A stretch of 51,627 nt of DNA, from positions 1 through 51,627 of the forward strand of contig JAPLXR010000009.1 of assembly GCA_026395955.1 (NCBI GenBank), read 5' to 3'. The translations under genes and the position numbers were made by a program. Each line of letters starts with the position of its first letter. The first letter of the stretch is position 1. Under the pieces are notes generated by a model that worked only from the letters and a program-made list of their open reading frames with translations, was not told the DNA's origin and did no database searches. Below are positions 14,131-39,719 of this stretch, piece by piece. The stretch is from Candidatus Nomurabacteria bacterium (GTDB lineage: Bacteria > Patescibacteriota > Minisyncoccia > Phycocordibacterales > UBA9973).

Positions 14131-17100
14131 TAATCCAAAAGCACCATTTGTAGACACAAAAGATGCTACAAATGTAAATTCATTTAGTGCGACACTCAAT
14201 GGTTCTATTACGAATTCTGGTGGAGCAAGTCATTTCTATTTTGAATATGGAACTACTGATTCTTATGAACTAGGTTATGCTTATGAATTTACTGGTATTT
14301 CAGGAACAGGGAATTTCAGTACTAGTGTAAAAGATTTGTCTCAAGCAAATACATATCATTATCGTTTATGTGCAGATAATAATTTAGGTAATAGTTGTGG
14401 AAATGATGTACAATTTGATACTCCTTCTGCTGTGAACTCAGATATGTCTTCAAATTCAAATAGTGATAAGAATTCTTGGTTTCCAGATGGTCCTGTATTT
14501 TCTAGTGTTGTAAATCAAGATACTGGTGAGGTTTATATCGGTGGAAATTTTCATAATATGTATCAACCAAGTGATATCGTAGGACAAGGAGTTCCTGTAG
14601 CGCTTGATACTGGTTTGCATTTAAATGATCCTCAAATAAATGGTCCTGTATATGCTTCTGTTTCTGATAATAATGGTGGATGGTATATCGGTGGAGATTT
14701 TACTTCTGTAGGAGAAAAACAAAGAAATAATCTTGCTCATATTGATGCAAATGGTAATGTTGATGACATAAATTTTGGTTTGCTTGGTGTAAATGGTACT
14801 GTGCGTGCTTTAGCACTTTCACCGATGGGAGATTTCTTATATGTTGGTGGAGATTTTAATCATGTTGAAGATGGTGATATTGGTCATGACATTGCTCGTT
14901 TAGCAAAAATTAATACAACTACTGGAACTGCTGATTTAATTTTCGACGCAGGTTTTGATGATACTGAAGGTGGTAATACTATTCGTTCATTGGCATTGAA
15001 TTTCGATGGTTCAAAAATTTATGCAATAGGAACATTTGTTCATACAAATATAAATACATCTGAAGTAGATATGAATGGTATTACAGAATTTAACACCACT
15101 GACGGATCTTTAGATACTTCTTTTAAACCTACTGTACCAAATGTTAACGAACACTATTTCTATTCAAGCGCATTATCTCTAGATGGAACAGTATTGTATG
15201 TTGGAGGGGCTGCTGGTTTGTATTCTTTTGAAACTTCTGCAAGTGAGAACTCTGGAAATAATTTGTGGGATATAGAAAACTTTAATTGGGTAAATGGTAT
15301 AAATGCTTTGGCATTATCACCAAATGGAAATACTTTGTATGCTGGTGGATATTTCTCAGAAAGTGGCGATGTTAACACTCATAATTATCTTGTAGCTTTT
15401 AATACAAGTGATGCGAGTGTTATGGATGATTTTCAGCCAGATTTAGATGAACCTGTAAATAGTCTAGTTGTTTCTTCTGATAATAATACTGTTTATGCCG
15501 GAGGATGGTTTACTTATGTAAAAACTCCTAATGTTAGCAGGTTATATGTTGCAGGGCTTGATGCTACTACTGGAGTTGCAACATCATTTGATCCACGTTC
15601 AAATGACATTGTAAATACAGTTGCTTTATCTTCTGATAACACTCAATTATTCATAGGAGGAGATATGACTATGATAAATGCTGTACCTAGAAACAATATC
15701 GCAGCTCTTGATATCGATGGAGCGTTGGATACTAACTTTGATCCAAATGTTGATGGGCAGGTAAATGCTTTGGCATTATCAAATGATAATAGTATTGTGT
15801 ATGCTGGAGGAAGTTTCACTAAGGTAAATGATAATGTTCAAAGAAAATTTATTGCTGGTTTCGATACTTCTGGTAATGTTACAAATTTTGATGCTGGAAT
15901 TAGAGATGGTAATTATGTAAATACTTTAGGTGTTGATAATAATAATTTAGTTTATACTGGTGGAGATTTTAATAACATTTCTGTTCCTTTTATCATAGAA
16001 ATACCTAGAAATGGTTTAGCTGTCTTTAATCCAGATGGAAGTTTAAATAACTTAGATTTTGGATTAAATGGTCCAGTGTACAGTTTGGCTTTATCAAAAA
16101 ATAATCCAATTATTTATCTCGCAGGAGCATTTAGTAATGTAAATAATGGAGTTGGTTTACAAGCATTCAGTACTACAGATGGGTCAGCTTTTTCAAACTT
16201 TAATCCAAGTGTAAATAATTCTATTTTTAATAAAGTAGTAGTTTCAGATGATGATAATACTATTTATGCTTCAACTTATTATACTTCAAGTGTATATTCA
16301 TTTGATTTTACAAATAGAGATGCGACACCAGGATTATTTGATTTAGAATATCTAGGTGAAGGAATAAATGATATATCTCTAGCCCCTAATCAAAATACAT
16401 TATATGTTAGTGGAGGATTTAATTTGATAAATGGATTTATTAGAAATTATCTAGCTTCATTTACAACTAGTGCAAATATTACAACTTTTGATCCAGATTT
16501 ATCTAGTGGTGGTGTAAATACTATCTCTTATTTCAGAAATGGAGAAAAGATGTATGTTGGTGGATATTTTGATGGTGTAAAAGGAGAGACAAAAATAAAA
16601 CATTTTACTTCATTTACTAGTCTAGGAGTTGTAAAAGCAACAACAGGTTCTGTCTCAGCTACAAATATTGCGCAAACTTCTGCGACACTAAATGGCACAG
16701 TTATTGATACAGGTGGTGAATATGTGACTGCAGGTTTTGATTATGGTATAGATACAAATTATGGAAATACTGTTACTGTAGATGGCACAGTGACTGATGC
16801 TACTGATTTCACTTATGATATTTCAAGTTTGACTTGTGGAACTACATATTATTATAGATCTTTTGCGACAAATAGTGCTGGTACTGTTTATTCAAGTGGA
16901 ACTTCATTTGAAACTGATCATTGTAGTCCTATGATGGTTGTATTAGGTTATCATGCAGGATTACATGGTAATATATTGGGTAATCCAACTCAAATAATTT
17001 TTGGTGGTTTCGGTTCTGCTGTGACTGCTGTAGCTGATACTGGATATCACTTTGTAAATTGGTCAGATAATTCTACAGATAATCCTCGATCAGATAATAC

Positions 17101-22171: not shown

Positions 22172-22672
22172 ATGAAAAATAATAAATCTATTATTGAAAG
22201 TTTTTTAGAAGAACTTTTGAAGTCCAACATAAGATATGGTGGTGTAGCTGTAAATTTGTTAGGTTTACCTGTCTTTAATAAAAAATATTCTAAGACCTCC
22301 TTTGCAAATGCTATTTCAAGAATGAAGAAAAATAATTTTATTGAAAATGATGGCGAGTTTTTGAAAATTACTCCTAAGGGCAAAGAATACATAAAAAGAA
22401 AACAAGATAGTTTACAAGTATTCTCTAATACATTCAAAAAAGATTCACCAAAGAACTTAATAGTAATGTTTGATATACCAGAAGGTAAAAAGGCTGAAAG
22501 GGAATGGTTCAGATTTCACTTAAAGAAATTTAACTATGTAATGGTTCAGAGAAGTGTCTGGGTTGGTCCTTCACCATTACCAAAGGACTTTATGAATTAT
22601 GTGGAATCAATAAAGCTCAAAGATTGTATTAAGACTTTTAAACTCGCAAAAGCTTACAAAATCGATAAGTAA
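22172..22672 (+). CDS. PaaX-like regulator: N-terminal winged helix plus a C-terminal Cas2/VapD-like ferredoxin-fold domain
   Basis: The C-terminal LIVMFDIPEGKKAEREWFRFHLKKFNYVMVQRSVWVGP matches the (V/I)xFDIPE..R...R..L...GF..LQ.SVW pattern of the PaaX C-terminal/Cas2-fold domains. The N-terminal ~75 aa look like a wHTH. Confidence 0.5.
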   Translation: MKNNKSIIESFLEELLKSNIRYGGVAVNLLGLPVFNKKYSKTSFANAISRMKKNNFIENDGEFLKITPKGKEYIKRKQDSLQVFSNTFKKDSPKNLIVMFDIPEGKKAEREWFRFHLKKFNYVMVQRSVWVGPSPLPKDFMNYVESIKLKDCIKTFKLAKAYKIDK

Positions 22673-25406: not shown

Positions 25407-28400
25407 ATGAAATTTTTGCGTCCAAAAAAAGATGAAAAGACTAAGCATTTTTTTATGCAAGATATCGTTCGAAGAACGATTGATAATCATCCTATTTTGA
25501 AAGAAAATTTACCCGTTATAGAAATTCATTTTGATAGAGCTAAAGAATTATTTCTTGAACACCGTCGAGCTATTTTTGGTATTTTAACTTTAGTTGTATC
25601 TCTTTCAATCTTGAGTGCTTTCTCTATGGGTCATGCTTCAGTTACAAATTTTTATCCTACAAGCTGTCTTGGTGGTTGGGAACATCCAGAGAATGCACAA
25701 GGTGAACCAGACTTACCAAGCGGTTCATCTCCAGAGAGTTTTAGTGTTTCAAATTCTGCGCGACTAGATAAATCCAGTGGCTCTATTTTCTGTGGAGGTT
25801 TCAAGGGAGAAGTTTTAGATAATACACAGCCGACAAATTTTCATTTATCTTTTTCTTGGTCTGTGGATGATGGTTCAGTAAATCATAACGAAGTAAAACC
25901 ATTTGAAAATGTTTCCAATACTGATCAACAAAATACAAATCCTGTAGATAATACAAATTCTAATTCTACAGATACAAATAATTCTACTGCAACAGATGTA
26001 AATAATAATTCAAACTTAGATTTAATTGAAGTTCCAAGTAATTCTGATACACAAAATAATAGTGCTGATAATTCTGTGAATATTCCATCATCAGATCCTG
26101 CACCAGCTCCTGTAGAATCTGCACCTGCACCAGAACCCGCTCCTTCTCAAAACGATAATCCTGTTTCAGCATTTTTATATAATTTATTTTCTACTCCTGC
26201 CTTCGCAGAAGATTTTAGTAATAGTTCATCTACACCAGAATTAATTTCAGAACCTGTTGTTACAGATACATCTACAGATTCAAATGCTTCTACTTCTAGT
26301 GAAAATAAAAATACAGGAGATGAATTATTAAATCAAGAATTAAATTCAGATAAAAACCTATCTGATGCATTTGCCGAAGTAGAATACACTCTCGATGGTA
26401 CAGATTGGAAAACTTTAGGAACTATAAGTCGTAGTCAGTGGCAAAATGCGTCTTTTAATATTCCACTCGATGCTTGGGCAAATCTGGACAATCTTCAAGT
26501 TTCAATAAAAACATTACCGACTTATGATACTCCTGCTGTTATATATTTAGACGCTATGAAAATGAGTGTCGAATATCAAGACATAAAAGAAATCCTTAAT
26601 CGTCCGACGGTTGAATTAAAAGATTCAAGTAATGTTATTTCAAGTCCACAACAAGATTTTAATTCTAGTGAAAATGTTAACTTTACTATAAATACTCCAA
26701 ACTTGGATATTAATGATATTAAAGATTTAGTAAATAATGGTACTGCTGAAATTGTCGATGATAAAGCTGGAGTTCTCACAGATACTCCTGTTATAGATAA
26801 CACAACTTCTAATAATACTATTAATTCTATAAAAGATATTGTAAAACCCACTGCTGATTCTTTAAATAAAGCATTACCAGATGACTTAAATTCAGCTCAA
26901 GTTATAGTTTTACCTGATATACCTAAAACGACGACAGATACAAAAATAATAACAGAAGAAAAACCAGTTTCATTGCTGGATTTTTTCGAAACAAAAAAAG
27001 CTCTAGCTGACGCTCCAGATATTACAGCAAAAGTTTTAGATTTAAATGGAGATGATACAGATATTAGTGCTCGAGTTGTGCCTGTAACTATAAATGGTAT
27101 CAATAAACAGCAAGTTCAAATAATAAAAGGTAGGGAATTCAAGCCTGGAAAATATACACTGAAAGTTTCAGTTAATACACCACAAGCGATAATCGTTTCA
27201 CAACAAGATTTTACTTGGGGTGTTTTGTCTATTAACACAAATAAAAGTATTTTTGAGGTAGGTGATGATGCTTATTTACAAATGGGAGTATTGAATGATG
27301 GTGGACATACTATCTGTGATGCTGATTTAAATTTGTCTATTACTAGTCCTAGCGGAATAGTAAATAATTTTTCAACTAGTGATGATTCTATAATTCGTGA
27401 AAAACAATGTGGACCAGACAATGTTATTTCTGTACCAGACTATTACGCACATTTCAATATTCCTAGTGAAATTGGTACTTATACAATGAGACTTACAGCA
27501 AATACTATAAATGGCACAAAAAATATTTCTGATACTTTTAATGTTGTGCATAATTCTAATTTTGTAGTTGAACGTGTGGGACCATCCCGTATATATCCAT
27601 ACGATACTCCGTACCCAATGAATATAAAAATTACTGCAAAAAATAATTGGCAGGGAATTGTCAGTGAATATGTACCAGAAAGTTTTGATATTTCACAAGA
27701 TACTAATGGTGTGCAATATATTTCTGTAAATATAGTAGAAGACCCTAGTGATCCTACTATACAAGTAAAGAAAATTTCTTGGAATGTATCACTTGTAGCA
27801 AATCAAGAAACAGACCTCGGATATATTTTCAATGCTCCACCTGTGAGTCCAGAATTTTATATACTTGGAAAAATTCAATTAAATAATAATGGAAATCTTT
27901 CTTTTGAAGAAGCTCGTAATTGGCAGATAGCATCTGATGCTGCATGTAACGCAACTGTCACAGGAACATGGGGAGGAACAGATACTGCTACTTTTACGTC
28001 TTGTACTGGTGCAGCGAGTACTGGTACAGGAACTGGTGCTAGACCAGGATCAGCTGATACTTTAACTATTAACTCTGGTGTAGTTGTTACACTCGCTACA
28101 ACCGCGTCTCTAACTTCTTTAACTCTTGCGACTTCAACTGTTGCAAACGGATTAGTAATAAATGATGGAAATACCTTAACTGTTTCAGGTGCTCTAACTT
28201 TTAATACGTCTGTTACAAACTCGTCTGTAACTCTCGGTTCGAGTACTGGTGCTGGTAACTTGACTGTAGGATCTATTTCTATGGCTGCACCAACTACTGC
28301 TGTTGCTTCTATTGAAAAAATAAACTGTTCGGCGAGTGGAACTGGAACTTTAACTGTTTCAGGAACTGGAACTATCGCTATTACTGGTAGTAGTACCGCA

Positions 28401-31400
28401 TCAAACACTGGTTCAGCAAGTATTGATATGACTGCTGGTGCTTGTAATGTTATTACGGGAACTGGTACAAATACTTTGACCGCAGGTACAACAGGAGCGA
28501 CACCAAATGCATTTATAAGAATGGGAACTGGAACAATTACTTTTAATAGTAGTTTAACTTTTGCTGGAGCAACAGCCAGTAAAGATGCTCTTATTACTGC
28601 AAACGGTACAACTATTTCATTGAACAATGCATCTTTGCCAGCAGTTGGAACTTCTGGTTCATATACTATTACAGGAAATACAAACTTAATTTCGGCTGGA
28701 ACAAGTTCTGTTGCTTATGCAACAGCTGTATCAACATGGGGAACATTAACAGTGAACAGTGGAACTTTGACATTGAGTGCGGCGGCAGAAACATTTACTG
28801 GCGCAGTAAACATTGCCGGAGGAACATTATCACTCGGAAACACCTTTACAGCTTCGAGCACGACTTCGGTGACGGGAACTATTTCAAACTTAAACAGTGC
28901 TACAGTAAAAACTTTTACAGGATTAGTTACAGTAAACTCTGGAGGATCAATTAACTTAACTACTGCTACTGTGCCTGTTGTGGTTATTGGTGCTGGTGTT
29001 ACCACATCGTCTGGTGCTAGTACTGTAAACTTTGGAACGGGAGCTACGACTTTTTCTAACGCATCACCGACTTTTACTGGGCCTGTCGCTGTAACAATTG
29101 GTGCTGTCACCTTAGCATCAGGTCAAACATTAACTAACAATATGAGTGCGACTCTTACATTGGCATCACTTACATTTGGTTCTGCTCCTGCTTCTGCTAT
29201 AACTGCTACACTTTCAACTGGATCAACGACTACTGTAACTGGAGCTATTACCTATGCCGTAGGAGCAAGTGCTCAGAGTGAAAGTATTTTATTAAACGGT
29301 ACCGCAAACTTAAACGCAGGATCTATTTCTATGCCAGCGATGACTGCAGCAGGTTCTGCTTTGATAACTTGTGTATCGTCTTGTAGTGGAACTTTAACAA
29401 CGACTGGTGCTGTGACTGTGACAGGGAATAGTACAGCTGCACAAACCGGAGTTTCAACTATTGCTATGAGTACAGGTAATATGAGTATTGGAGGATTGCT
29501 TACTATTGCTGGTGGAACTGTGACTGCTGCTACTGTATCTCAAAGTACAGGTAATATGACATTATCTGCTGGTATTACTTTTTCTGGAACAGCAGCAAAC
29601 ACTAGATTGACGACAACAGGAGCAAATACGATTTCTTTTGCGGGTAACTGGACAAATACATCAGCCCCAACTCTTACTATAAATTCTGGTACAACTTTAA
29701 AAACAACTGGAACTGCGACATTGTGTGTGACAAATGGTATGACATGGCCAGGAAAATTGTGGGTATCTGCTGGTACAACTTCACTCGCATTAGCTGAAAC
29801 AATTACTGGTACAACACAAGTTACAAGTACACTTAACAATACTAACGGTAACACGGCTAAAATTTTCGGTGGTCTTATTACTGTAAACTCTGGAGGAACT
29901 TTTGATATGACTGTAGTTACAGCACCTTCTGTCGAATTTCGTGGAGGTATTCAGGTAGATAGTGGTGCAGTAAAATTTGCAACAACAGGAACAACAACAT
30001 TTACCACAGCAAACCAATCAATTTCTGGTGGAGGAAGTATCGGTATTTCATTTGGTGTAGCTACTGTTAACGCAAACATTTTGTTAACAAATAGTTATAC
30101 TGGAGGTACTGTTACTTTTAACTCAACTTTAAACTTGACAGCTCCTACTTCCGCTAGTGATGGTTTAAGTTTATCTACTGGTACTACTACTGTAGTCACT
30201 ACAATTATTACACTTGGAGCGAATGCTGCTGCTGGTGCTTTTACTGAACTTGTTACTTTAAATGGAACGGCAGTTTTTACCGCTGGAACTACAACTTTAT
30301 CTGCACCGACATCTACAACAGCAGGAGCAACAGAAGGAATTATCGCGGCTTCTGGAGCATCAGGTAATGTGAGTTTAGGTGCTACTACTTTGACTTGTAC
30401 TGGTGTCGGAACACAGTTTTGTGGAATAGATTTATCTCTAGGAACAAATGCACTTTCTGTTTCTACTCTTTCTGCTTCTGGTAGTAATACTGATGTTGCA
30501 AAAGTTTTAATGAGTTCCGGAACATTTACTTCAAGTGGACTTATTACTATTACTGGTGCCTCTACTTTAAATCCTTCAGCTGTTTTAACTACAACCACAG
30601 GTAATGTAAATATAAATGCCGGTCTCACTTTTGCTGGAACAGTTGCCAATACTCAATGGAATACTGGTGCAGAAATTATAAACTTTGTAGGAACGATGTC
30701 TGGTGCTGGAGTTATTAATATAAACTCTGGAGCAACTTTTAATACTAGTGGTGTTGCATCTTTGAGTTCTCCTATAACTTTACCGAATTTAAATATATTG
30801 TCAGGAACAACAACAATGGGAGCAATATTGATTACGGTATCTGGTGCTACAAATGTTACAGGTGCTATGGTAAATGCAAGTAGTGCTCTAGCTAAAACTT
30901 TTACAGGATTAGTGACCGTTAACAACGGAGGATCAATTAACTTAACAACAGCTACAGTACCTGCTGTTAGTTTTGCCACAGGTGTCACGACTGTTACTGG
31001 TGCTGGTACTGTAAACTTTGGAACAGGCGCTACTACATTTACAGCTAGTTCTTCTTTTAATGGTCCTGTCGGAATAACAATTGGTGCTACTACTATTAAC
31101 TCTGGAGTTGTTGTTACAAATAACAACACAGCGACAGTTACAATGAGTTCTTTGACCTTAGCTTCTGCTACTTCGGGAACAACTGGCATGTCACTTACTA
31201 CAGGATCTACTACAACAATTACTGGAGCACTTACTTATACTGCCAATGCTGGTGTAGGACTCAATGAAGTTATTACAATGAATGGTACTGCAAACTTAAA
31301 CGCTGGTTCTGTTGTAATGCCTGCTGGAAGTAATACTGGAAACTCATCTGTAACTTGTGCTGCTGGATCTGGAACATTTACTGTTACTGGTGCTTTAGGT

Positions 31401-34322
31401 GTTACAGCAGGAACTACTGCCGGTGCTTCAACCCTCGCAATGGATACTTGCACACTTGCTGCAAATGGACTTGTTACAATTACAGGAGGTACTGTAGGTG
31501 TGGCTAGTATTTCTGCTTCAACTGGAACTTTAGACTTCAATGCTGGTATTACTTTTGCAGTAACATTGGCTCAGGCTCGTATTACAACTTCAGGTGCGGC
31601 AAACATTTATATAACAGGAACAGTTGGTGGTGTGGGAATACTTTCTGGTATTAACTCAGCTACAACAATATACACTCAAGGAGTAGTAAATATAAATGCC
31701 GCTTTAACATTTCCTAATATGACTGTCTCAACAGGAACGACAACAATTTCTCAAGCAACAACTATTTCAAATGGTTTAACTGTCTCAAGTGGAGCAATTT
31801 TACAATTCACAGGAGTTGCCTTTACTTCAAGTAGTACTACGACAGTTAATGGAGCTATAAACTGTACTGTTGCTGCAACTTGTACTGGTACGAAAACTTT
31901 TACAGGTGCAGTTACAGTGAATAACGGGGGAAGTTTTAATCTTAATACTCCTGCACCATCAGTCTTTCCTACTTTAGTTTTTGGTAGTGATATTACTGTA
32001 AATACAGGTGGAGATTTAAATACAGGTATTGCAGGTACCACAAATACTTTTACAGGAAACTTAACCTTATCAGGAGGAGGCACGATGACTTTTAATGGAA
32101 CTGTTGCAAATGCTACAACAATTAACTCAGGAGTATTAGTGACAAATAGTAATACAAATACAGTAACATTTGGAGTTTTGACTTTAGCTTCTGGATCTAC
32201 AGGTCTGTCACTTTCTACTGGATCAACAACGACAGTTTCAGGATTGCTTTCAGCGTCAGCTAATGCTACAGCTACAAATACAAATATAGCAATGAATGGA
32301 ACTGCGAATCTAAATGCTGGAACATTTACAATTACTCCACCTACTAGTACTGGAAATGTTGGTGTTACTTGTAATGCTAGTTCTGGAACATTTACAGTTA
32401 CTGGGGTGACAACGATATCAGGAAATGCGACTTCAACAGGAACGGCAAATATGCTTATGGATAGTTGTAATTTTTCTGCTGGTGGTGCTGTAAACATGGG
32501 TGGAGGAGCAAATGCTGTCGGAGGTATCGATACTCTTTCTTTTAGTACTGGTACACTTACATTTTTAACTGGTATTACTTTTGCAGGAACAAGTCAGGCT
32601 AGAAATAAACTTACTACTACAGGTGCAGGTATTATAAATCTCACTGGTACAATGACAGGAGGTGGAACAATTTCAATTGATTCAACTACTACATTTAATA
32701 CTACAGGAACAACTGGTTTTTCGTCTCCCATTACACTTCCAAATTTAAATGTTCTTTCTGGTACAACTACAATGAATGGTGTAACTATTACTGTAAATGG
32801 TGCAACAAATATTTCAGGAACACTCGCAACAGGAAGTATTACCGGTACAAAAACATTTACCGGGTTAGTCGATGTAAATCCTTCTGCAAGTTTTGATTTT
32901 ACTGCTTTTGCTACGGCGACAAGTTTTGGTAGTGGTATTAATATGGATGGAACAACATTCAATACTGGTACAGGTACAACTACTTTTTCTGCATCACAAA
33001 GCCTAAGTGGCTCTACTGCTATGATTTTCGGTGGAGCAGTAACGATAAGTAGTGGATTTACTTTAACAAATAGTAATACTAGTACAGTTGACTTTAACAG
33101 TAGTATTACAGGAGGTAATGGATCTTCTAACTTTGCAACAGATATCAACTCAACAACGAACTTCGGAGGCGCAACAATGGCAACAGGAACACTTACTCCA
33201 AGCACAAGTGTAAATACTATTGCTTATGATGGAGGAACACAGACAATAGAAGCCCCGATAACAAATCCGTATTACAATTTAAATATTACAGCTGCTGGAG
33301 TAAAAAGTTTAGCCGCGATTACTACAGTAACTAATACGATAAATATTTCAGCAGGAACTCTCGATACAACAAGTGCTTCACATTATAATATAAACACTGG
33401 GAATATGACTATAGGTGGTAGTGGAACATTACTCGGACAAGCTGCAACTATTACACTCACTGGTAATTGGTCAAACGCTGGTGTATTTACAGCAGGAACT
33501 TCAACTGTAATTATGAATGGTGGTACAACTGCATCTGTAACAGGAACGACAACATTTAATAATCTAACCATTACACACACAAGCGCAAAAGAAGTTGATT
33601 TCGATTCAACTGGTATTACACACGTGACAGGAATATTTACTGTAACAGGGCATTCTGGTAATTTGATAACTTTACGTTCAGATGCAACTCCGACAAAATG
33701 GCAAATACATCCGACAGGTACTGCGAGTGCTGACTATGTAGACGTAATGGACGGAGGATGTCAAAGCGGATCTACCAATATCTCACCAACTAATTTTACA
33801 AATAGTGGAAACAATGACGGTTGTTGGGTTCCAACTTTCGTTTCTTTTACTTATTCTAATTCTGATTCTAGTATTGGTTTTGGAACGTTATCTTCTCTGG
33901 GTGTGTGTTATGCTACAAATGACACATTGGGTTCTGCTACAGATGTCGTTGCTCATAGTTTAAATATGGTAACAAATGCTGTTTCAGGATATACACTTAC
34001 ATATTTTGGAAATACTTTAACTTCTGGGTTAAATACAATTAGCCCAGCTATTAATATCAATACTGGTGGAACATCTGGAACATCTCAATTTGCAATTTCA
34101 GGTACAATGACGAGTTCTGGTACTGGTGCTATGGTATCAGGCTATAATCATGTTACTCCACAATGGTCTTTTGTAGATGGTGCAACTACAACAATTGCAT
34201 CTTCTTCGGGTCCTGCAACTTCTGATACTGTCGATATGCACTATGAAGCAAATATTTCTCCTATAACTCCAGCAGGGAATTATTCTACAAATATTACTTA
34301 TATAGTTACAGGAAATTTTTAA
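25407..34322 (+). CDS. Giant (2971 aa) N-terminally membrane-anchored surface protein. It has low-complexity stalks, Ig-like domains, about 5-6 Thr/Gly/Ala-rich repeats of ~330 aa (beta-helix-like) and a C-terminal subunit-like domain.
   Basis: TM segment IFGILTLVVSLSILSAF near aa 55-75. N/T/D/S-rich and PAPAPVESAPAPEPAP linkers. Repeated ...KTFTG(L/A)VTVN(S/N)GGS(I/F)NL... and ...(L/M)NGTANLNAG... units. A near-C-terminal SGNNDGCW motif. The last ~160 aa are homologous to the product of 34436-35506. Confidence 0.85.
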   Translation: MKFLRPKKDEKTKHFFMQDIVRRTIDNHPILKENLPVIEIHFDRAKELFLEHRRAIFGILTLVVSLSILSAFSMGHASVTNFYPTSCLGGWEHPENAQGEPDLPSGSSPESFSVSNSARLDKSSGSIFCGGFKGEVLDNTQPTNFHLSFSWSVDDGSVNHNEVKPFENVSNTDQQNTNPVDNTNSNSTDTNNSTATDVNNNSNLDLIEVPSNSDTQNNSADNSVNIPSSDPAPAPVESAPAPEPAPSQNDNPVSAFLYNLFSTPAFAEDFSNSSSTPELISEPVVTDTSTDSNASTSSENKNTGDELLNQELNSDKNLSDAFAEVEYTLDGTDWKTLGTISRSQWQNASFNIPLDAWANLDNLQVSIKTLPTYDTPAVIYLDAMKMSVEYQDIKEILNRPTVELKDSSNVISSPQQDFNSSENVNFTINTPNLDINDIKDLVNNGTAEIVDDKAGVLTDTPVIDNTTSNNTINSIKDIVKPTADSLNKALPDDLNSAQVIVLPDIPKTTTDTKIITEEKPVSLLDFFETKKALADAPDITAKVLDLNGDDTDISARVVPVTINGINKQQVQIIKGREFKPGKYTLKVSVNTPQAIIVSQQDFTWGVLSINTNKSIFEVGDDAYLQMGVLNDGGHTICDADLNLSITSPSGIVNNFSTSDDSIIREKQCGPDNVISVPDYYAHFNIPSEIGTYTMRLTANTINGTKNISDTFNVVHNSNFVVERVGPSRIYPYDTPYPMNIKITAKNNWQGIVSEYVPESFDISQDTNGVQYISVNIVEDPSDPTIQVKKISWNVSLVANQETDLGYIFNAPPVSPEFYILGKIQLNNNGNLSFEEARNWQIASDAACNATVTGTWGGTDTATFTSCTGAASTGTGTGARPGSADTLTINSGVVVTLATTASLTSLTLATSTVANGLVINDGNTLTVSGALTFNTSVTNSSVTLGSSTGAGNLTVGSISMAAPTTAVASIEKINCSASGTGTLTVSGTGTIAITGSSTASNTGSASIDMTAGACNVITGTGTNTLTAGTTGATPNAFIRMGTGTITFNSSLTFAGATASKDALITANGTTISLNNASLPAVGTSGSYTITGNTNLISAGTSSVAYATAVSTWGTLTVNSGTLTLSAAAETFTGAVNIAGGTLSLGNTFTASSTTSVTGTISNLNSATVKTFTGLVTVNSGGSINLTTATVPVVVIGAGVTTSSGASTVNFGTGATTFSNASPTFTGPVAVTIGAVTLASGQTLTNNMSATLTLASLTFGSAPASAITATLSTGSTTTVTGAITYAVGASAQSESILLNGTANLNAGSISMPAMTAAGSALITCVSSCSGTLTTTGAVTVTGNSTAAQTGVSTIAMSTGNMSIGGLLTIAGGTVTAATVSQSTGNMTLSAGITFSGTAANTRLTTTGANTISFAGNWTNTSAPTLTINSGTTLKTTGTATLCVTNGMTWPGKLWVSAGTTSLALAETITGTTQVTSTLNNTNGNTAKIFGGLITVNSGGTFDMTVVTAPSVEFRGGIQVDSGAVKFATTGTTTFTTANQSISGGGSIGISFGVATVNANILLTNSYTGGTVTFNSTLNLTAPTSASDGLSLSTGTTTVVTTIITLGANAAAGAFTELVTLNGTAVFTAGTTTLSAPTSTTAGATEGIIAASGASGNVSLGATTLTCTGVGTQFCGIDLSLGTNALSVSTLSASGSNTDVAKVLMSSGTFTSSGLITITGASTLNPSAVLTTTTGNVNINAGLTFAGTVANTQWNTGAEIINFVGTMSGAGVININSGATFNTSGVASLSSPITLPNLNILSGTTTMGAILITVSGATNVTGAMVNASSALAKTFTGLVTVNNGGSINLTTATVPAVSFATGVTTVTGAGTVNFGTGATTFTASSSFNGPVGITIGATTINSGVVVTNNNTATVTMSSLTLASATSGTTGMSLTTGSTTTITGALTYTANAGVGLNEVITMNGTANLNAGSVVMPAGSNTGNSSVTCAAGSGTFTVTGALGVTAGTTAGASTLAMDTCTLAANGLVTITGGTVGVASISASTGTLDFNAGITFAVTLAQARITTSGAANIYITGTVGGVGILSGINSATTIYTQGVVNINAALTFPNMTVSTGTTTISQATTISNGLTVSSGAILQFTGVAFTSSSTTTVNGAINCTVAATCTGTKTFTGAVTVNNGGSFNLNTPAPSVFPTLVFGSDITVNTGGDLNTGIAGTTNTFTGNLTLSGGGTMTFNGTVANATTINSGVLVTNSNTNTVTFGVLTLASGSTGLSLSTGSTTTVSGLLSASANATATNTNIAMNGTANLNAGTFTITPPTSTGNVGVTCNASSGTFTVTGVTTISGNATSTGTANMLMDSCNFSAGGAVNMGGGANAVGGIDTLSFSTGTLTFLTGITFAGTSQARNKLTTTGAGIINLTGTMTGGGTISIDSTTTFNTTGTTGFSSPITLPNLNVLSGTTTMNGVTITVNGATNISGTLATGSITGTKTFTGLVDVNPSASFDFTAFATATSFGSGINMDGTTFNTGTGTTTFSASQSLSGSTAMIFGGAVTISSGFTLTNSNTSTVDFNSSITGGNGSSNFATDINSTTNFGGATMATGTLTPSTSVNTIAYDGGTQTIEAPITNPYYNLNITAAGVKSLAAITTVTNTINISAGTLDTTSASHYNINTGNMTIGGSGTLLGQAATITLTGNWSNAGVFTAGTSTVIMNGGTTASVTGTTTFNNLTITHTSAKEVDFDSTGITHVTGIFTVTGHSGNLITLRSDATPTKWQIHPTGTASADYVDVMDGGCQSGSTNISPTNFTNSGNNDGCWVPTFVSFTYSNSDSSIGFGTLSSLGVCYATNDTLGSATDVVAHSLNMVTNAVSGYTLTYFGNTLTSGLNTISPAININTGGTSGTSQFAISGTMTSSGTGAMVSGYNHVTPQWSFVDGATTTIASSSGPATSDTVDMHYEANISPITPAGNYSTNITYIVTGNF
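27945..33560 (+). repeat. Tandem ~1-kb coding repeats (about 5-6 units) inside the 2971-aa gene
   Basis: The landmark NGTA(N/V)(L/F)(N/T)AG recurs near 29290, 30260, 31275 and 32290. The KTFTG landmark recurs near 28908, 29865, 30894, 31890 and 32850. DNA similarity between units is roughly three-quarters by eye (for example 28908-29100 versus 30894-31090). Confidence 0.75.
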
Positions 34323-34380
34323 TTTTTTTTTAGAAAATAATTATGTGGATAACCTTTTGTTGTTTTTATTTGTGTGAATA

Positions 34381-34389
34381 TGATATAAT
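34381..34389 (+). promoter_or_regulatory. Extended -10 TGaTATAAT upstream of the 356-aa subunit gene
   Basis: tgatataat at 34381-34389 in the 113-nt gap after the giant gene. This implies an internal promoter for the downstream genes. Confidence 0.35.
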
Positions 34390-34435
34390 AAATACAATAA
34401 ATACGTAAAAATTATTATTATTATTATTTAAAATA

Positions 34436-35506
34436 ATGAAATTATTTAAATCAAAATTTGTGTCTGCATTCTTAATCCTCGCGGTTGTTTTTTTTAGTTC
34501 TGGTTTGTTTGTGAATCATGCATACGCTGCATCGATCACTACTTTTTCGGACACACTTTCAAATGAAAATGCAAGTGCTGTGTCAAACCATGACATCTCT
34601 TTCGTCACTCCTACTGGTGTTGCCAGTGGTCAAACAATCATTTTAACTTTCGACAACAGTACTTCTATTAATGCATCTCTCGACTTTAGTGATATAGATG
34701 TGCTCGACAACGGTACGAACGTCACACTCGCTGCGTCACCGACTGGAGCTACGTGGGGAGCAGTAAGAACTTCAGCTACTGTTATTACACTTACTAATGG
34801 TACAACTGCAGTCACTGCGGGACATACTATTCGTATCAAAATTGGAACAAACGCAACTAACCAATCTACTGGTGTTCGCCAAATAACAAACGGTCCTGCA
34901 GGTACTACTACGCTTGCAATCTCGGGAACTTTTACTGATACTGGTACACTCGCGATGGCTATCATTTCAAACGACGTAGTCACAGTAACTGCAACAGTAG
35001 CTCCGACTATTTCTTTCGCTCTATCTTCAAATGCTATTAGTTTTGGTACATTAACATCTGCTAATGGTAAATGGGCTGATTCATCTACAGGGCAAACAGC
35101 TATAGCAGGTAACCTTCCAACAGCTGCTCATACTATGACAGTTTCTACTAATGCTAGTTCGGGTTATGTTGTTTCAGAATTAGGTACAACACTCGCATCT
35201 GGCGCTAATACCATAGCAGCTGCTACTATTTCAGCAGATAGTGATGGTACTCCTAACTCTGCACAGTTTGCTACATCTTTTAGTACTAGTGGATCATCAA
35301 CTATTAATACTTCATATGCACGAAGTTCAAACAGTAGTTGGAGTTACGCAAACTCTGCTTCAGTGCCTGTAGTTATTGTAACTTCTCCTGCAGCACCAGT
35401 ATCTTCAGAAGTCATTACCGCATCTTATTTAGCAAATATTAGTGGTTCTACTCCAGCAGGATCTTATACTACTGGAGTTACTTACATAGCTACTGCAACA
35501 TTCTAA
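34436..35506 (+). CDS. Secreted 356-aa surface subunit. Its C-terminal half is homologous to the C-terminus of the giant protein (WxL-like or pilin-like, unassigned).
   Basis: Signal peptide MKLFKSKFVSAFLILAVVFFSSGLFVNHAYA. ISF..S...ISFGTL, TNASSGY, TLASGANTI, QFA and ANISGSTPAGSYTTGVTYIATATF align with the tail of the giant protein. Confidence 0.7.
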   Translation: MKLFKSKFVSAFLILAVVFFSSGLFVNHAYAASITTFSDTLSNENASAVSNHDISFVTPTGVASGQTIILTFDNSTSINASLDFSDIDVLDNGTNVTLAASPTGATWGAVRTSATVITLTNGTTAVTAGHTIRIKIGTNATNQSTGVRQITNGPAGTTTLAISGTFTDTGTLAMAIISNDVVTVTATVAPTISFALSSNAISFGTLTSANGKWADSSTGQTAIAGNLPTAAHTMTVSTNASSGYVVSELGTTLASGANTIAAATISADSDGTPNSAQFATSFSTSGSSTINTSYARSSNSSWSYANSASVPVVIVTSPAAPVSSEVITASYLANISGSTPAGSYTTGVTYIATATF

Positions 35507-35513
35507 AAAAAAT

Positions 35514-36560
35514 ATGAAATTTATAAAAATTTATTCAACAAAAAAAACACTTCTAATATTTTCTTTTGTGCTTGTAACTATTTTTTCTCCAATTCATAAA
35601 TCTTTCGCTCTCACTCTTACGCCTATTCGCCTTGAAATAAACGGTGATACAGGTCAAACTCTTTCAGAAGAAATGACCTTGATAAATGAGAGGGATACAG
35701 AAGAAACTTACTATTCTTCTTATGCAAACTTTGAAGCACAAGGGGAAAGTGGTAGTCCATCTTTCGTAGAAGCCAAAGACGATATCGGCACTTGGATGAG
35801 TGCAGTACCATCAATAGTTCTTCCTCCTAAAAGTTCTAAAATAGTTCAAGTTAAAATAGCTATACCATCTAATGCAGATGCTGGTGGACATTTCGGTGCA
35901 ATATTTTGGGGAACAACACCTCCTAATAATACTGGAACAAGTGTTTCCATCGGTGCAAAGACAGGTATGCTTGTACTCCTCCGTGTAAATGGAGATGTTG
36001 CTGAAAAAGGCGGAGTATTAGAATTTGCTACACAAAACAAACAAACATATTTTACTTCATTACCTATTTCTTTCTATTATCGTTTCCAAAACAATGGAGG
36101 TGACCGTATCAAGCCAACAGGAGATATCTTGATGAAAGATACGATAGGTCTTACTGGTGCAAAGATTTCTGCTAATCCTGTAGAAGGAAATATTTTACCA
36201 AATCAAGTTCGTAAATTTGAGACGGTTTGGCAAGGTAAAGATGGTCCTACACCACTCGACGATAAATCACAAGGAAACTTTTTCAATAAAGTAGGTTATG
36301 AATGGAGAAACTTTGCTTTTGGACGCTACAAAGCAGAGATGAATCTTTCTTATGGTACAAAGAATGAAGTAGCAACTGCAGTTTTTTCTTTCTGGGTATT
36401 TCCATGGCATTTAACTTTACTTAGTATTATTGCCTTATTAATTATTTTCTTCGGTGGTAAATTCTTGATAAAGAAATACAATCATTGGGTCATTTCACAA
36501 GCAGAAGCTATGATAAAGCGTGAAAATGAAATCCATGATAAACATAAAGCTCACAAATAA
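35514..36560 (+). CDS. Cell-surface Ig-fold protein with a C-terminal TM anchor, DUF916/DUF3324-like (CscA-like or chaperone-like)
   Basis: Signal peptide; LTLTPIRLEINGDTGQTLSEEMTLIN; PPKSSKIVQVKIAIPSNADAGGHFGAIFW; LPNQVRKFETVW...FGRYKAEMNLSY; a C-terminal TM helix LTLLSIIALLIIFFGG followed by a basic tail. Confidence 0.5.
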   Translation: MKFIKIYSTKKTLLIFSFVLVTIFSPIHKSFALTLTPIRLEINGDTGQTLSEEMTLINERDTEETYYSSYANFEAQGESGSPSFVEAKDDIGTWMSAVPSIVLPPKSSKIVQVKIAIPSNADAGGHFGAIFWGTTPPNNTGTSVSIGAKTGMLVLLRVNGDVAEKGGVLEFATQNKQTYFTSLPISFYYRFQNNGGDRIKPTGDILMKDTIGLTGAKISANPVEGNILPNQVRKFETVWQGKDGPTPLDDKSQGNFFNKVGYEWRNFAFGRYKAEMNLSYGTKNEVATAVFSFWVFPWHLTLLSIIALLIIFFGGKFLIKKYNHWVISQAEAMIKRENEIHDKHKAHK

Positions 36561-37506
36561 TTTTAATAAATTTATAAATAATAAAAACAAGAAAGCATTT
36601 TTCTTGTTTTTATTTATATTTTTATTTCCATTATTTTCTAATGCTAGTAGCTGTACTACTACACTCGGAGGTACTTGTAATTTAAATGATTCTATAACTA
36701 TTTCAGCTACGGTTGGTTCTAGTGGTGGTGGAGGAGGCGGAGGAGGCGGCGGTTCTGGCGGTGGCAGTTATAATCCATCTACGAGTGTTACTTTTTCTGG
36801 TTTTGCTTATCCATTATCTAGAGTTATCTTACTCCAAGATGGTCAAGAAATTTTAAATACAGTTGCTGGTCCTGATGCTCATTTTAGTATTACTGTTTCA
36901 AATTTAAATACAGGAGTATATACATTTTCAATTCTAGGTGAAGATTCTAATGGACAAAGATCTACACTTTTTACTATTCCTATTTCTACAACTTCTAACG
37001 TCGCTACAGATGTTTCAGGAATATTTATTGCCCCTACTATTGAGATAGATAAAGAGCAAGTCAAGCAAGGTGATACTATAACTGTTTTCGGAAAAACAGT
37101 TCCGAATGCTACTGTTATAATTCAAACCCATTCCGATAATTTAATTCAAGATACTGTTACTTCTGATAATTCTGGAGGATATATTTATAATCTAAATACT
37201 ACTCCTTTGGAATATGGTAACCATATTACAAAATCAAAATCTTCTTTAACGAATGTAAATACAAACCCGACCTCTTCTTTTAGTAAATTGCTTTCATTTA
37301 AAGTTGGTAGTGAAAATATAATGAAAAAAGATGCTTGTGGAAATATCGCTGATTTTAATAATGATTGTCATGTTAATTTAATAGATTTTTCTATAATGGC
37401 GTATTGGTATCATAGGACTGGAGTGCCAAAAGAAATTGATTTAAATGGAGATAGTTTTATAAATTTGGTTGATTTTAGTATATTAGCTTATCATTGGAAT
37501 GGTTAA
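36535..37506 (+). CDS. Secreted protein with a poly-Gly linker, two Ig-like domains and a C-terminal dockerin-like module
   Basis: Signal peptide ...KKAFFLFLFIFLFPLFSNA and SSGGGGGGGGGGSGGGS. The duplicated Ca-binding-type segments DFNNDCHVNLIDFSIMAYWY and DLNGDSFINLVDFSILAYHW form the dockerin pattern. The ORF opens at GTG 36520, and the ATG at 36535 is a plausible start. Confidence 0.6.
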   Translation: MINIKLTNNFNKFINNKNKKAFFLFLFIFLFPLFSNASSCTTTLGGTCNLNDSITISATVGSSGGGGGGGGGGSGGGSYNPSTSVTFSGFAYPLSRVILLQDGQEILNTVAGPDAHFSITVSNLNTGVYTFSILGEDSNGQRSTLFTIPISTTSNVATDVSGIFIAPTIEIDKEQVKQGDTITVFGKTVPNATVIIQTHSDNLIQDTVTSDNSGGYIYNLNTTPLEYGNHITKSKSSLTNVNTNPTSSFSKLLSFKVGSENIMKKDACGNIADFNNDCHVNLIDFSIMAYWYHRTGVPKEIDLNGDSFINLVDFSILAYHWNG

Positions 37507-38410
37507 AAATATTTTTAAAATTAAATATCTCTTAATGTTTGGATTATTGATATTTTTTATAATACCAAATTTTTCTTTTGCTTCTGAAATTGATTTCAAA
37601 ACAAATACTCCCAATTTAGGTATAGGTGATGAATTTACAGTTCAAGTTATTCTAAATACTCAAGGTCAAAGTATGAATGCAATATCCGGAGATATTAATT
37701 TCGATGATAGTTTTTTATCAGCTGAAAATGTTATTTTTGCTAATTCTATAGTTCCTGTTTGGATAGATTCACCTCATATTTCAGGGAATTCAATTGTTTT
37801 TTCCGGAATAATGCCGGGAGGGTATCAATCTACAGTAGATCCTGTAACACAAAATAGTGTCCCTGGAGTTATTTTTAATATTAATTTTAAAGTTAAATCC
37901 GCTGGTCAAAATTTAATACAATTTAATGATATTCATGTTTATAAAAACGATGGATTAGGAACTGAAGATATTGTTTCTATTAATCCATTTATTTTAAATT
38001 TAAATGATGTTGGTAGTAATTATGTTGTAAATAATGTGGATATTATTCCACCAGAAAATTTTACACTTACGATATTTAATGATAAAAATATTTATGATGG
38101 TAAAAATGTATTAATTTTTAGTACAAATGATAAACAAAGTGGTATTGATCATTATGAAATAAAAGAAGGCAAATATGATTGGATTCGTAGTGAAAGTCCT
38201 TATTTATTACTTGATCAAAATTTATCTGGTGAAATTGACGTAAAAGCCATAGATCTAGCCGGGAATTATACTATCAGTAAAATAAATAAATCAAAGAATT
38301 ATTTAGATATTATATTATTGTTAATTATTGCAATTATTTTATTCATTTCGCTCTTGATTCATCGTAGTCATTTGCGGTATCATAAGAAGAGGATAAGAAA
38401 TGAAAAATAA
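37499..38410 (+). CDS. Membrane-anchored cohesin-like protein (303 aa)
   Basis: Signal peptide; NLGIGDEFTVQVILNTQGQSMNAISGDINFDDSFLSAENV...GVIFNINFKVKSAG (cohesin-type beta-sandwich pattern); C-terminal TM IILLLIIAIILFISLLI plus the basic tail HRSHLRYHKKRIR. The start overlaps the upstream stop. Confidence 0.55.
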   Translation: MVKNIFKIKYLLMFGLLIFFIIPNFSFASEIDFKTNTPNLGIGDEFTVQVILNTQGQSMNAISGDINFDDSFLSAENVIFANSIVPVWIDSPHISGNSIVFSGIMPGGYQSTVDPVTQNSVPGVIFNINFKVKSAGQNLIQFNDIHVYKNDGLGTEDIVSINPFILNLNDVGSNYVVNNVDIIPPENFTLTIFNDKNIYDGKNVLIFSTNDKQSGIDHYEIKEGKYDWIRSESPYLLLDQNLSGEIDVKAIDLAGNYTISKINKSKNYLDIILLLIIAIILFISLLIHRSHLRYHKKRIRNEK

Positions 38411-39719
38411 ATTATTTTTAATAATCATATTAATAGTAGCAGTTTTTTCTGTTGGGCAAAAAGCCCATGCAGCTTCTTTGTATTTAATTCCAGATTTGGG
38501 TACTTATAATATTGATGACACTGTTACTGTTGGTGTTTTTGTTTCTACAACAAATGATAAATCAATTAATGCTATTTCAGGAGAAGTTACTTTTCCTGAA
38601 GATAAATTGAATTTTGTAAATGTTTCTAAGGTTGGATCTATCGTAAATGTTTGGACTACAGAACCTTTTAAAGAAACTAATGATGTTCGTTTTGAAGGTA
38701 TTGTTTTAAATCCGGGATATAATGGGACAAAAGGAAAAATAGCTACAATTACGTTTAAAGCTAAAAATCCAGGTGTAGCTGATTTGGCCTTTATTTCTTC
38801 TTCTGTTTTAGCAAATGATGGGCTAGGAACGAATTTATTAGATAAAACAGGAATAGCAAAATTTACGATTAATAAAACCTTGCCTTCAATAAAGGCTAAT
38901 CCAGTTTTACCTAAACCAAAGAAAGATTCAGGTCTCGTTAATGCAACTTCTACTCCAATGTTTACAATAACTCCAGTACCGACAATGGTTGAAGTAGATT
39001 TACCATATAAACAATTTACTTTTACTATTAGTAATTTAGTTAAACCAATAGCTTCTTATAATATTGCTATAGATAGAGGTAATCCAATAATATGGAATGA
39101 TGATGGTACTGGTATTTATACGACTCCAGAATTAGAATCCGGAAATCATACTTTGGTTGTAGAAGCTGTTGATACTGATGGAAATAAATTAGTTAATAGT
39201 ATTGATTTTACTGTTTCAGCTTTAAAGAAGCCAATAATAAAAATGTCTAACCAAGCCTTGCTCGATGGTGACTTTTTAGTAATTTCCGGTACAGCTACAT
39301 CAAATCAAAATGTAGATATTTATATTAAATCTCAATTAGACAATAGTGATGATATTTATAATATATTATTAGGCAAGACTTCTTTTATACAAGCTGATTT
39401 TGAAAAAGTAGGTACTAGTCTAACTGATAAAAATGGTTTATTTACTTTTGTTTATGATAATAGAATTAAAAATGGTGTATATTCTGTTTATGTAATTTCT
39501 AGAACAGATAATAATATTGAAAGTAAGCCTAGTGATACTGTTTTAATTCATGTAGATAAAAATAGTTTCCAGAAAATTTTAACACTTATTTTTAGAGCAT
39601 TAGTATTTTTCTTGTTACCATTTATCGGTTTATTAACTTTACTTAAATTAATAATTTCTTTCTTTTCTAAAATATATACAATATACAAAAGACATAAAGA
39701 AAGTACAAAAATTGAATAA
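38400..39719 (+). CDS. Membrane-anchored cohesin-like protein with two Ig-like domains (439 aa)
   Basis: Signal peptide; NIDDTVTVGVFVSTTNDKSINAISGEVTFPEDKLNFVNV...GKIATITFKAKNPGVADL; C-terminal TM ALVFFLLPFIGLLTLLKLIISFF. The start overlaps the upstream stop. Confidence 0.55.
   Translation: MKNKLFLIIILIVAVFSVGQKAHAASLYLIPDLGTYNIDDTVTVGVFVSTTNDKSINAISGEVTFPEDKLNFVNVSKVGSIVNVWTTEPFKETNDVRFEGIVLNPGYNGTKGKIATITFKAKNPGVADLAFISSSVLANDGLGTNLLDKTGIAKFTINKTLPSIKANPVLPKPKKDSGLVNATSTPMFTITPVPTMVEVDLPYKQFTFTISNLVKPIASYNIAIDRGNPIIWNDDGTGIYTTPELESGNHTLVVEAVDTDGNKLVNSIDFTVSALKKPIIKMSNQALLDGDFLVISGTATSNQNVDIYIKSQLDNSDDIYNILLGKTSFIQADFEKVGTSLTDKNGLFTFVYDNRIKNGVYSVYVISRTDNNIESKPSDTVLIHVDKNSFQKILTLIFRALVFFLLPFIGLLTLLKLIISFFSKIYTIYKRHKESTKIE

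Follow-up and report, generated by a model that had tools for sequence, protein, structure and literature searches.

Six adjacent genes on the plus strand of a Candidatus Nomurabacteria contig probably encode a Pam-type pilus, a chaperone-assisted, usher-less fibre built by donor-strand exchange, in a Parcubacteria-group version that appears to be anchored differently from the pilus already described. The genes, which we call P1 to P6, occupy positions 25407-39719 of the 51,627-nucleotide (nt) stretch of DNA analysed here (contig JAPLXR010000009.1; the window). Bacteria of the candidate phyla radiation (CPR), or Patescibacteria, account for much of bacterial diversity; they live on host cells, to which they attach by means that are mostly not understood. 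A sequence-only reading of the window had presented the block as an undescribed cell-surface assembly system. That label does not apply to the pilin and chaperone-like core, which belongs with the Pam pilus of CPR bacteria (Troman et al., bioRxiv 10.64898/2026.03.03.709456) and for which NCBIfam models exist. What is new here is a dockerin-bearing candidate for the terminating subunit, P4, which carries a pilin-like strand, together with two cohesin proteins, P5 and P6, anchored by transmembrane (TM) helices.

A conserved cassette of six genes

The listing of open reading frames (ORFs) for the window confirms six plus-strand genes: P1 (25407-34322, 2971 residues), P2 (34436-35506, 356 residues), P3 (35514-36560, 348 residues), P4 (to 37506, from either a GTG at 36520 or an ATG at 36535, giving 328 or 323 residues), P5 (37499-38410, 303 residues) and P6 (38400-39719, 439 residues). 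P1 and P2 lie 113 nt apart and P2 and P3 7 nt apart, followed by overlaps of 26 nt between P3 and P4 (from the ATG at 36535), 8 nt between P4 and P5 and 11 nt between P5 and P6. The sequence-only reading agrees with this listing in the number, strand, coordinates and overlaps of the genes; for P4, its overlap is that of the 36535 start, whereas its length of 328 residues is that of the GTG start. It is gene spacing that suggests an operon. A promoter and terminator scan of the locus returned counts no higher than shuffled sequence would give, and was uninformative.

The cassette recurs well beyond the window. A scan of one genome per species identified 144 relatives of P3, and locus counts were taken from the best 80 loci. 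In these, P4 is present in 78, P2 in 74, P5 in 73 and P6 in 72, and the missing members mostly fall at contig ends. Co-conservation had been named as a check on the earlier proposal, and the six families do co-occur strongly in this set. Gene order is constant (tip protein, one or more pilins, P3, P4, P5, P6) across about 80 species genomes of the Parcubacteria group, with tightly packed and overlapping genes throughout. A local hidden Markov model of the C-terminal domain described below resolves the general layout: one tip-type protein comes first, between one and three pilin-type proteins follow, and P3-P4-P5-P6 complete the set; exactly two proteins carry the domain in 59 of the 80 loci. 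Because the genes flanking the cassette vary among genomes, we regard the block as a self-contained unit.

The hosts of related loci are Nomurabacteria, Paceibacterota and Parcubacteria metagenome-assembled genomes (MAGs). The closest relative of the window is a Candidatus Nomurabacteria MAG (locus L001), with DNA identity of 87% at rlmB and about 72% over P3-P6. The organism belongs to the Parcubacteria group of the Patescibacteria, and the earlier description of the host as CPR-like was correct. At locus L083, an IS200/IS605-type Y1 transposase gene (4910-5593, minus strand) is inserted between the tip-adhesin and pilin genes. An apparent P3-P4 fusion at locus L039 was rejected as the artefact of a masked run of N.

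P1 and P2 share a Pam-type C-terminal domain

The homology previously noticed between the end of P1 and the C-terminal half of P2 is well founded: the last ~165 residues of P1 align with P2 at 35% identity over 167 residues (E 2e-17). Furthermore, both proteins exceed the 55-bit cutoff of NCBIfam model NF058581 (CPR_Pam_pilin_C, 'Pam pilus system pilin subunit'), with 57.4 bits for the P1 C-terminus and 57.2 bits for P2. The same model is matched by 47 of 73 P2 orthologs (best E 1e-36), and 4 of 10 small tip-type proteins lie above its cutoff. Judged by sequence, the domain common to P1 and P2 is the Pam pilin C-domain, and these matches support the earlier idea of a surface fibre whose giant protein and small subunit share an assembly domain. 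The domain sits at the extreme C-terminus, where all 160 of the 160 ORFs that carry it end in F or Y, in the form T(G/A/S)(T/N/S)F. In P1 it spans 33819-34319 on the plus strand (residues ~2805-2971, ending TGNF-COOH) and is the proposed acceptor of a donor strand.

P2 consists of a signal peptide, an N-terminal beta-sandwich (residues ~33-171), a linker and the Pam-type C-domain (residues 192-356); 74 of 74 family members have a signal peptide and lack a TM helix. The AlphaFold2 (AF2) model has a mean pLDDT (predicted local distance difference test score) of 83.6, with two all-beta domains and a linker that falls below 50 at residues 181-186. The core of this linker, VTVTATV (34979-34999, plus strand, residues 182-188), is the proposed donor strand. 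A strand of the form (I/V)(I/V)xDDxVxV(T/S)ATVxPT lies just before the C-domain in 92 pilin-type proteins, in which it is conserved, and is absent from 62 tip-type proteins; the motif [VILF][STNA][VIL][STN]Ax[VIL] occurs in the linker of 54 of 74 P2 pilins. Donor-strand exchange is established for chaperone-usher pili, and P2 would assemble in a comparable manner, by donation of its linker into the C-domain of a neighbour.

P1 lacks the conserved linker strand in the segment preceding its C-domain (…NFTNSGNNDGCWVPTFVS), and it also lacks the pilin N-domain. Tip-type orthologs at other loci are likewise without the pilin N-domain, range from 264 to 2648 residues and carry the C-domain at their exact end. 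By the logic of donor-strand exchange, a protein with an acceptor domain and no donor linker could be placed only at the distal tip, and this would therefore be the position of P1. The remainder of P1 comprises an N/S/D-rich head (residues ~80-850) and a repeat region (residues ~850-2790) of about six repeats of ~330 residues over ~1,940 residues, which are 34-52% identical and rich in T (23%), G (14%), A (11%) and S (11%). The G+C content reaches 0.38-0.41 within this repeat region (window 28001-34000), as against ~0.30-0.34 elsewhere, which is consistent with the codon bias of Thr/Gly/Ala repeats. A single N-terminal hydrophobic segment (residues 56-74) ends in SMGHA|SV and may be a cleavable signal peptide and not an anchor. 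Of the earlier description of P1 as N-terminally anchored, then, the hydrophobic segment stands and the anchoring is uncertain.

The pilin is the fastest-evolving gene of the cassette. Between the window (34436-35506) and L001 (8849-9994) it gives no blastn match, and protein identity is ~34%, a divergence that suggests diversifying selection or allele replacement.

A dockerin protein with a pilin-like strand

P4 comprises a signal peptide, a short Cys loop, the strand ITISATV, a poly-Gly spacer, Ig (immunoglobulin) domains (Big_6) and a C-terminal dockerin, with a TM helix in 0 of 75 family members. The window protein scores 30.2 bits for Big_6 and 21.5 bits for Dockerin_1, for which the gathering score is 22.9. 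Among its orthologs, Dockerin_1 is found in 67 of 72 (best E 9e-10) and Big_6 in 63 of 72. PF00404 is precomputed for most family members and one NCBI name agrees. The dockerin module (37336-37503, plus strand, residues ~268-323) contains two EF-hand-like calcium-binding loops, DFNNDCHVNLIDF and DLNGDSFINLVDF. Across 72 sequences, loop residues D273, D277, D284, D306 and D313 are invariant and N275 and D302 nearly so. The duplicated dockerin that had been recognised in P4 is a property of the family, with exactly one dockerin ORF per locus in 78 of 78 loci.

The strand ITISATV (36694-36714, plus strand) occupies residues 54-60, counted from the 36535 start, with poly-Gly from residue 64, and is the proposed terminating donor strand. 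The motif given above for the pilin linker is found in 57 of 75 P4 orthologs, ~5-20 residues after the signal peptide, where shuffled sequences lead one to expect 1.8. Elsewhere in the cassette it occurs in 0 of 81 P3, 0 of 74 P5 and 1 of 63 P6 proteins. At locus L002 the P4 strand, VTVSATV, is identical to the linker of that locus's own pilin. A run of four or more Gly usually follows the strand, which is thereby separated from the Ig domains. Since the dockerin protein carries a pilin-type donor strand, the cohesin-dockerin module would be tied mechanistically to the fibre. Moreover, a subunit that has a donor strand and no acceptor domain would have to be the last, cell-proximal one, as none could be added after it.

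Chimeric proteins at other loci illuminate this arrangement. At locus L005 the protein in the P4 slot begins with a signal peptide and a full pilin N-domain (E 2e-39). The linker VTISATV and poly-Gly come next, and the protein ends, without a C-domain, in Ig domains and a dockerin (E 9e-36). Such chimeras form four independent clusters in public data, ~40% identical to one another, and the two that were checked in context both occupy the P4 slot. The second, at locus L083, has a P3 homologue (E 2e-118) on one side and two cohesin genes on the other, and upstream of it are a normal pilin and a 1252-residue tip-type protein. On these sequences we read P4 as descended from a pilin, with Ig domains and a dockerin where the acceptor domain used to be, the N-domain also having been lost in most lineages.

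Longer dockerin proteins of the P4 family from outside the window (P0445, P0451, P0456, P0474, P0481, P0486, P0497, P0499 and P0507) lack the pilin-type strand and begin with repeated D(F/Y)TS(T/S)NF...GGG..S.S.NF segments. In other lineages, the dockerin adaptor may go together with fibre subunits of a different kind.

Two membrane-anchored cohesin proteins

P5 is made up of a signal peptide, a cohesin-like domain (residues ~28-170), a second conserved beta domain, a TM helix (residues ~269-287) and a basic tail. P6 likewise starts with a signal peptide and a cohesin-like domain (residues ~24-160) and ends in a TM helix (residues ~401-419) and a basic tail, with an Ig-like stalk (Big_13) in between; this stalk varies in length among orthologs and matches Big_13 in 20 of 62. 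The N-terminal domains of the two proteins are paralogous (37% identity, E 2e-14). Pfam Cohesin (PF00963) is detected in 11 of 71 P5 orthologs (best E 3e-8) and 19 of 62 P6 orthologs (best E 2e-16), and is precomputed on one ortholog in public annotation. In profile searches of the PDB, P5 gave a weak match to Ruminococcus flavefaciens scaffoldin cohesins (5aoz and 5m2o, E ~1e-3), and the P2, P3 and P6 families gave no match. A C-terminal TM helix is found in 72 of 74 P5 proteins, and P6 also has one. Two cohesin ORFs are present per locus in 61 of 76, and in the 51.6 kb of the window no dockerin or cohesin module was found outside P4, P5 and P6. The earlier assignment of an N-terminal cohesin-like domain and a C-terminal TM anchor to both proteins thus holds at the level of their families.

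A chaperone-like membrane protein

P3 is the most conserved protein of the cassette, with a mean column identity of 55% against 17-30% for the others. It has a signal peptide, two beta-sandwich domains, a TM helix (residues ~301-319) and a basic cytoplasmic tail (AF2 model, pLDDT 70), in keeping with the Ig-like domains and C-terminal TM segment attributed to it before; the helix is found in 78 of 81 family members. The family is large: a word-indexed search returned 549 matches and an exhaustive profile search 9,358 representative clusters at E<=1e-3, all of them unnamed.

Foldseek comparison of the P3 model with the PDB placed Enterococcus faecium WxLIP first (9i1y and 9i25, the latter with a long WxL protein; E 2e-9). 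Next came the chaperones of chaperone-usher systems (CfaA, CsuC, EcpB, Caf1M, DraB, PapD and FaeE), and RbmA was also matched. The match to WxLIP supports the assembly-factor-like role that had been proposed for this membrane protein. At the sequence level, P3 scores 17 bits against DUF916 (PF06030), below the gathering score of 27.3; 30 of 37 family members match at E<=0.1, all sub-threshold, with a best E of 3.9e-6. DUF3324 was matched by no P3 family member scanned. Of the DUF916/DUF3324 resemblance seen earlier, therefore, the DUF916 (WxLIP) half is upheld and the DUF3324 half is not.

The mature N-terminus of P3, ALTLTPxRLE (window 35604-35630, residues ~31-39), is almost invariant, and residues 28-36 have pLDDT below 50. 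A strand at the N-terminus of WxLIP is likewise conserved and poorly packed (PMC10599100). In P3 this segment might, to go by the model, be a strand that pairs with a partner, for instance the groove of a subunit.

Comparison with known systems

The filaments of Candidatus Mycosynbacter amalyticus, resolved by cryo-electron microscopy (cryo-EM), contain the two-domain pilins PamA and PamB, each of which donates the strand between its domains to a neighbour, whose C-terminal Ig-like domain is open to receive it (Troman et al., bioRxiv 10.64898/2026.03.03.709456). The same study describes PamC and PamD as PapD/FimC-like chaperones with a C-terminal TM helix and PamT as a linker-less subunit, which it places at the tip. 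The terminator and anchor is proposed there to be PamR, in which two FnIII domains accompany an N-terminal strand and a C-terminal TM helix. The main hosts are Saccharimonadia and Microgenomatia, and the Mycosynbacter filaments are easily shed (bioRxiv 10.64898/2026.03.03.709456). The cassette shares with this system a pilin C-domain that matches the curated model, a pilin of two domains (as modelled for P2) with a conserved linker, a linker-less tip subunit, the lack of an usher and restriction to CPR bacteria. P3 may be its counterpart of PamC and PamD, a role that its signal peptide, its C-terminal TM helix and, in a model of moderate confidence, its paired beta-sandwiches and chaperone-like fold would fit.

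There are also differences. The tip protein is here a 2971-residue adhesin and not the PamT equivalog: against NF058579, which has a cutoff of 240 bits, P2 scores 18.6 bits and tip-type proteins at most 43. One chaperone-like gene stands in place of PamC plus PamD. No single protein is built like PamR, with both a pilin-type strand and a TM helix: P4 has the motif and lacks the helix, whereas in P3, P5 and the window's P6, which have the helix, the motif is absent. Instead, the cassette has a strand-plus-dockerin protein and two TM-anchored cohesins. Its hosts are of the Parcubacteria group, and an ATP synthase neighbourhood was not seen to be conserved. The Pam preprint (bioRxiv 10.64898/2026.03.03.709456) contains none of the words dockerin, cohesin, WxL and Paceibacteria, and our literature search found no paper linking cohesins or dockerins with CPR pili, or WxL with chaperone-usher logic.

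The sequence-only reading had compared the locus with the WxL/Csc clusters of Firmicutes, in which a small and a large WxL protein accompany WxLIP (DUF916, DUF3324 and a TM helix), a strand of which is predicted to insert into the WxL domain (PMC10599100). There is indeed a likeness, in that a TM-anchored protein with two Ig domains occurs beside a small and a large secreted protein with a common C-domain. As a class assignment, however, the comparison fails the definition of WxL: the W-x-L motif is found in 0 of 73 C-domains and not in that of P1, and Pfam WxL is not matched. The fold search of the PDB with the P2 model gave no WxL-domain match, and some relationship between the C-domain and WxL domains may still exist. 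The signals for WxLIP itself are mixed in P3, with DUF916 sub-threshold, DUF3324 undetected, a TM helix present and WxLIP structures as the top fold match. The pilins here, unlike WxL proteins, also have an extra N-domain and a donor linker. We know of no cohesin or dockerin described in WxL clusters.

With the chaperone-usher pili (Pap, Fim, CFA/I, Csu and Caf1), the cassette shares the modelled fold of P3, a putative, alternating-hydrophobic donor strand with an invariant small residue and, as we propose, a logic of subunits: the tip adhesin can only accept a strand, the terminator cannot accept one, and the subunits between them polymerise. It differs in the lack of an outer membrane, in the membrane tether of its chaperone-like protein and in a donor strand that is an internal linker and not an N-terminal extension, except in P4. 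Pfam models of the PapD family gave no sequence-level match, and Pfam and NCBIfam scans found no usher-like protein among P1 to P6 and the downstream neighbour P7.

The cohesin-dockerin pair is a connector best known from cellulose-degrading enzyme complexes. Like the anchoring of cellulosomes in Clostridia and Ruminococcus, the cassette places a duplicated, calcium-binding dockerin on a secreted protein and encodes cell-bound cohesins in adjacent genes. Here, however, it is a C-terminal TM helix that anchors the cohesins, in place of SLH domains or sortase. P4, the protein that would be docked, bears a pilin-type strand and no enzyme or carbohydrate-binding module, and the cargo that we propose is a pilus.

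A model for assembly and anchoring, and its alternatives

In the Pam-type pilus that we favour, all six proteins would be exported by Sec. P3 would stay in the membrane by its C-terminal helix and complement the open C-domain groove of newly exported subunits, in the way ascribed to PapD/FimC-type chaperones, PamC/D and WxLIP. P1 would stand at the distal tip and present ~2,800 residues of adhesin. P2 would polymerise behind it, the linker VTVTATV of each subunit filling the C-domain groove of the subunit ahead. P4 would be added last, as terminator or cap, its poly-Gly and Ig domains leading to a calcium-binding dockerin that docks non-covalently on the cohesin of P5, P6 or both. P5 and P6, which presumably divide this labour between them, would be fixed in the membrane by their C-terminal TM helices. 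The role assigned to PamR in Mycosynbacter, with its N-terminal strand and TM helix, would thus be split between a strand-plus-dockerin protein and two cohesin-plus-TM proteins.

Several observations weigh against this model, and some of them lend themselves to other explanations. The contacts that it calls for, of strand with groove, chaperone with subunit and cohesin with dockerin, are inferred, and the cassette is known from genes, from which filaments in this lineage are deduced. The Dockerin_1 score of the window's P4 and the Cohesin score of its P5 (20.1, against a gathering score of 24.1) both lie just under threshold, and the window's P6 has no direct Pfam Cohesin match, being linked to the family through its orthologs and its paralogy with P5. 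An N-terminal segment that remained uncleaved would make a tip location awkward for P1. A fold search of the PDB with the P2 model returned generic two-Ig adhesins and pilins only (ClfA, Als, FimH, PapG, EbpB and BslA). The P3 family matches no NCBIfam Pam model, and the resemblance of its modelled fold to RbmA also means that it could be an anchor instead of a chaperone. Finally, within loci, variation in the P4 strand does not follow that in the pilin linker to a significant degree (5.0 as against 4.8 +/- 0.14; 468 of 5000 permutations reached the observed value or more), and in the wider P4 family the strict motif occurs in only 36 of 120 proteins, many of the rest having other N-terminal modules. 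These last points, with RbmA, would suit a locus in which the pilus exists and P3 alone anchors it, chaperones it or does both, in the manner of PamR or PamC/D, whereas P4 to P6 form a separate, co-located display module, P4 being a small surface protein held on P5 and P6 and not linked to the fibre. P3 does have the architecture common to PamC, PamD and PamR, and its conserved low-pLDDT segment could itself be a donor strand. Against such a division stand the pilin-type strand near the N-terminus of P4, found far in excess of expectation and isolated by poly-Gly, the chimeras that join pilin N-domain, linker and dockerin in the P4 slot, the invariant order of overlapping genes and the lack of any other recognisable functional domain in P4. 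We consider it unlikely that the module is separate.

An explanation without a polymer would make the locus a wall complex of WxL/Csc type, in which the C-domain common to the large and the small protein binds the wall and P3 acts as a WxLIP-like holder. The best fold match of P3, including a WxLIP in complex with a long WxL protein, speaks in its favour, as do the sub-threshold DUF916 matches, and one WxLIP-like protein with a large and a small C-domain protein, the composition of the many loci with two C-domain proteins, mirrors the commonest WxL cluster. Nevertheless, neither the defining motif nor a Pfam WxL or DUF3324 match is present, the C-domain matches a curated Pam pilin model and its homologues have been seen as filaments by cryo-EM. 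The polarity given by a linker that pilin-type proteins possess and tip-type proteins lack fits a polymer and not a wall-bound complex, and we judge this explanation decidedly improbable. We give hardly any credence to a small scaffold of cellulosome type, on which enzymes or binding proteins would be displayed at the cell surface and to which the T/G/A-rich giant would be unrelated cargo: cohesin and dockerin modules are certainly present, yet Pfam and NCBIfam scans find no catalytic or carbohydrate-binding domain in the six proteins, there is a single dockerin ORF per locus with none elsewhere in the window, and the module is always embedded in a set of pilin and chaperone-like genes.

It is tempting to go beyond the Pam-type pilus itself to a broader proposition in three parts: that the terminator derives from a pilin whose acceptor domain gave way to a dockerin, that the fibre is held by a calcium-dependent, non-covalent clasp to two membrane cohesins, and, with the WxLIPs of Firmicutes as the closest structural relatives of P3, that CPR Pam pili and WxL/Csc clusters both branch from one ancient superfamily of monoderm, chaperone-only fibres. 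Taken jointly, these three parts are put forward tentatively, as a possibility to which we assign somewhat less than even weight. Were they true, cellulosome-type modules would here have their first role in pilus biogenesis, and pili would have a third mode of anchoring, beside ushers and sortases.

Genomic surroundings and other features of the window

Upstream of the cassette the window contains housekeeping genes for SerRS, Dus, DnaX and RlmB; downstream are P7 and then thioredoxin, DsbB and flavoprotein genes. P7 (39782-40954, plus strand, 390 residues) is membrane-anchored and has no Pfam or NCBIfam match. It was rejected as a cassette member, having no family match and adjoining the cassette in only 2 of 80 loci (L001 and L029). 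It had also been suggested that the DsbB and thioredoxin pair services the locus. Both genes are real, but we rejected them as dedicated partners because they lie near the cassette in only 2 of 80 genomes and P2 is free of cysteine.

A second giant surface protein is encoded at 6494-17935 (plus strand, 3813 residues). PG_binding_1 forms its C-terminal domain; besides this, the protein shows InlB B-repeats, GLUG motifs and a region resembling the N-terminal part of M26 IgA1-proteases, but no Pam C-domain. An overlapping gene upstream (3984-6551, plus strand) encodes an 855-residue protein with GLUG and M26_N matches. A large PG_binding_1 protein is also encoded directly upstream of the cassette at locus L081. 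Elsewhere in the window (22172-22672, plus strand) lies the gene for a 166-residue protein with a PaaX central/Cas2-like domain (PF20803, 47.5 bits), which exceeds the cutoffs of two Cas2 models (TIGR01573, 27.8 against 24.5 bits; PF09827, 27.3 against 23.8 bits).

Implications

If our interpretation is true, the reach of the Pam pilus would extend to the Parcubacteria group, where at least ~80 genomes at species level contain the cassette and the family of P3 alone numbers thousands of sequence clusters. The hypervariable giant protein would be assigned to the tip of the fibre, so that host recognition becomes testable. The cassette would further provide a new principle of anchoring, from the base of the fibre through a dockerin adaptor to cohesins in the membrane, and a calcium-dependent, non-covalent anchor of this kind could explain the easy shedding of Pam filaments. 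In addition, the structural tie between the modelled P3 and WxLIP may suggest how the poorly understood WxL systems on the surface of lactobacilli, enterococci and Listeria work.

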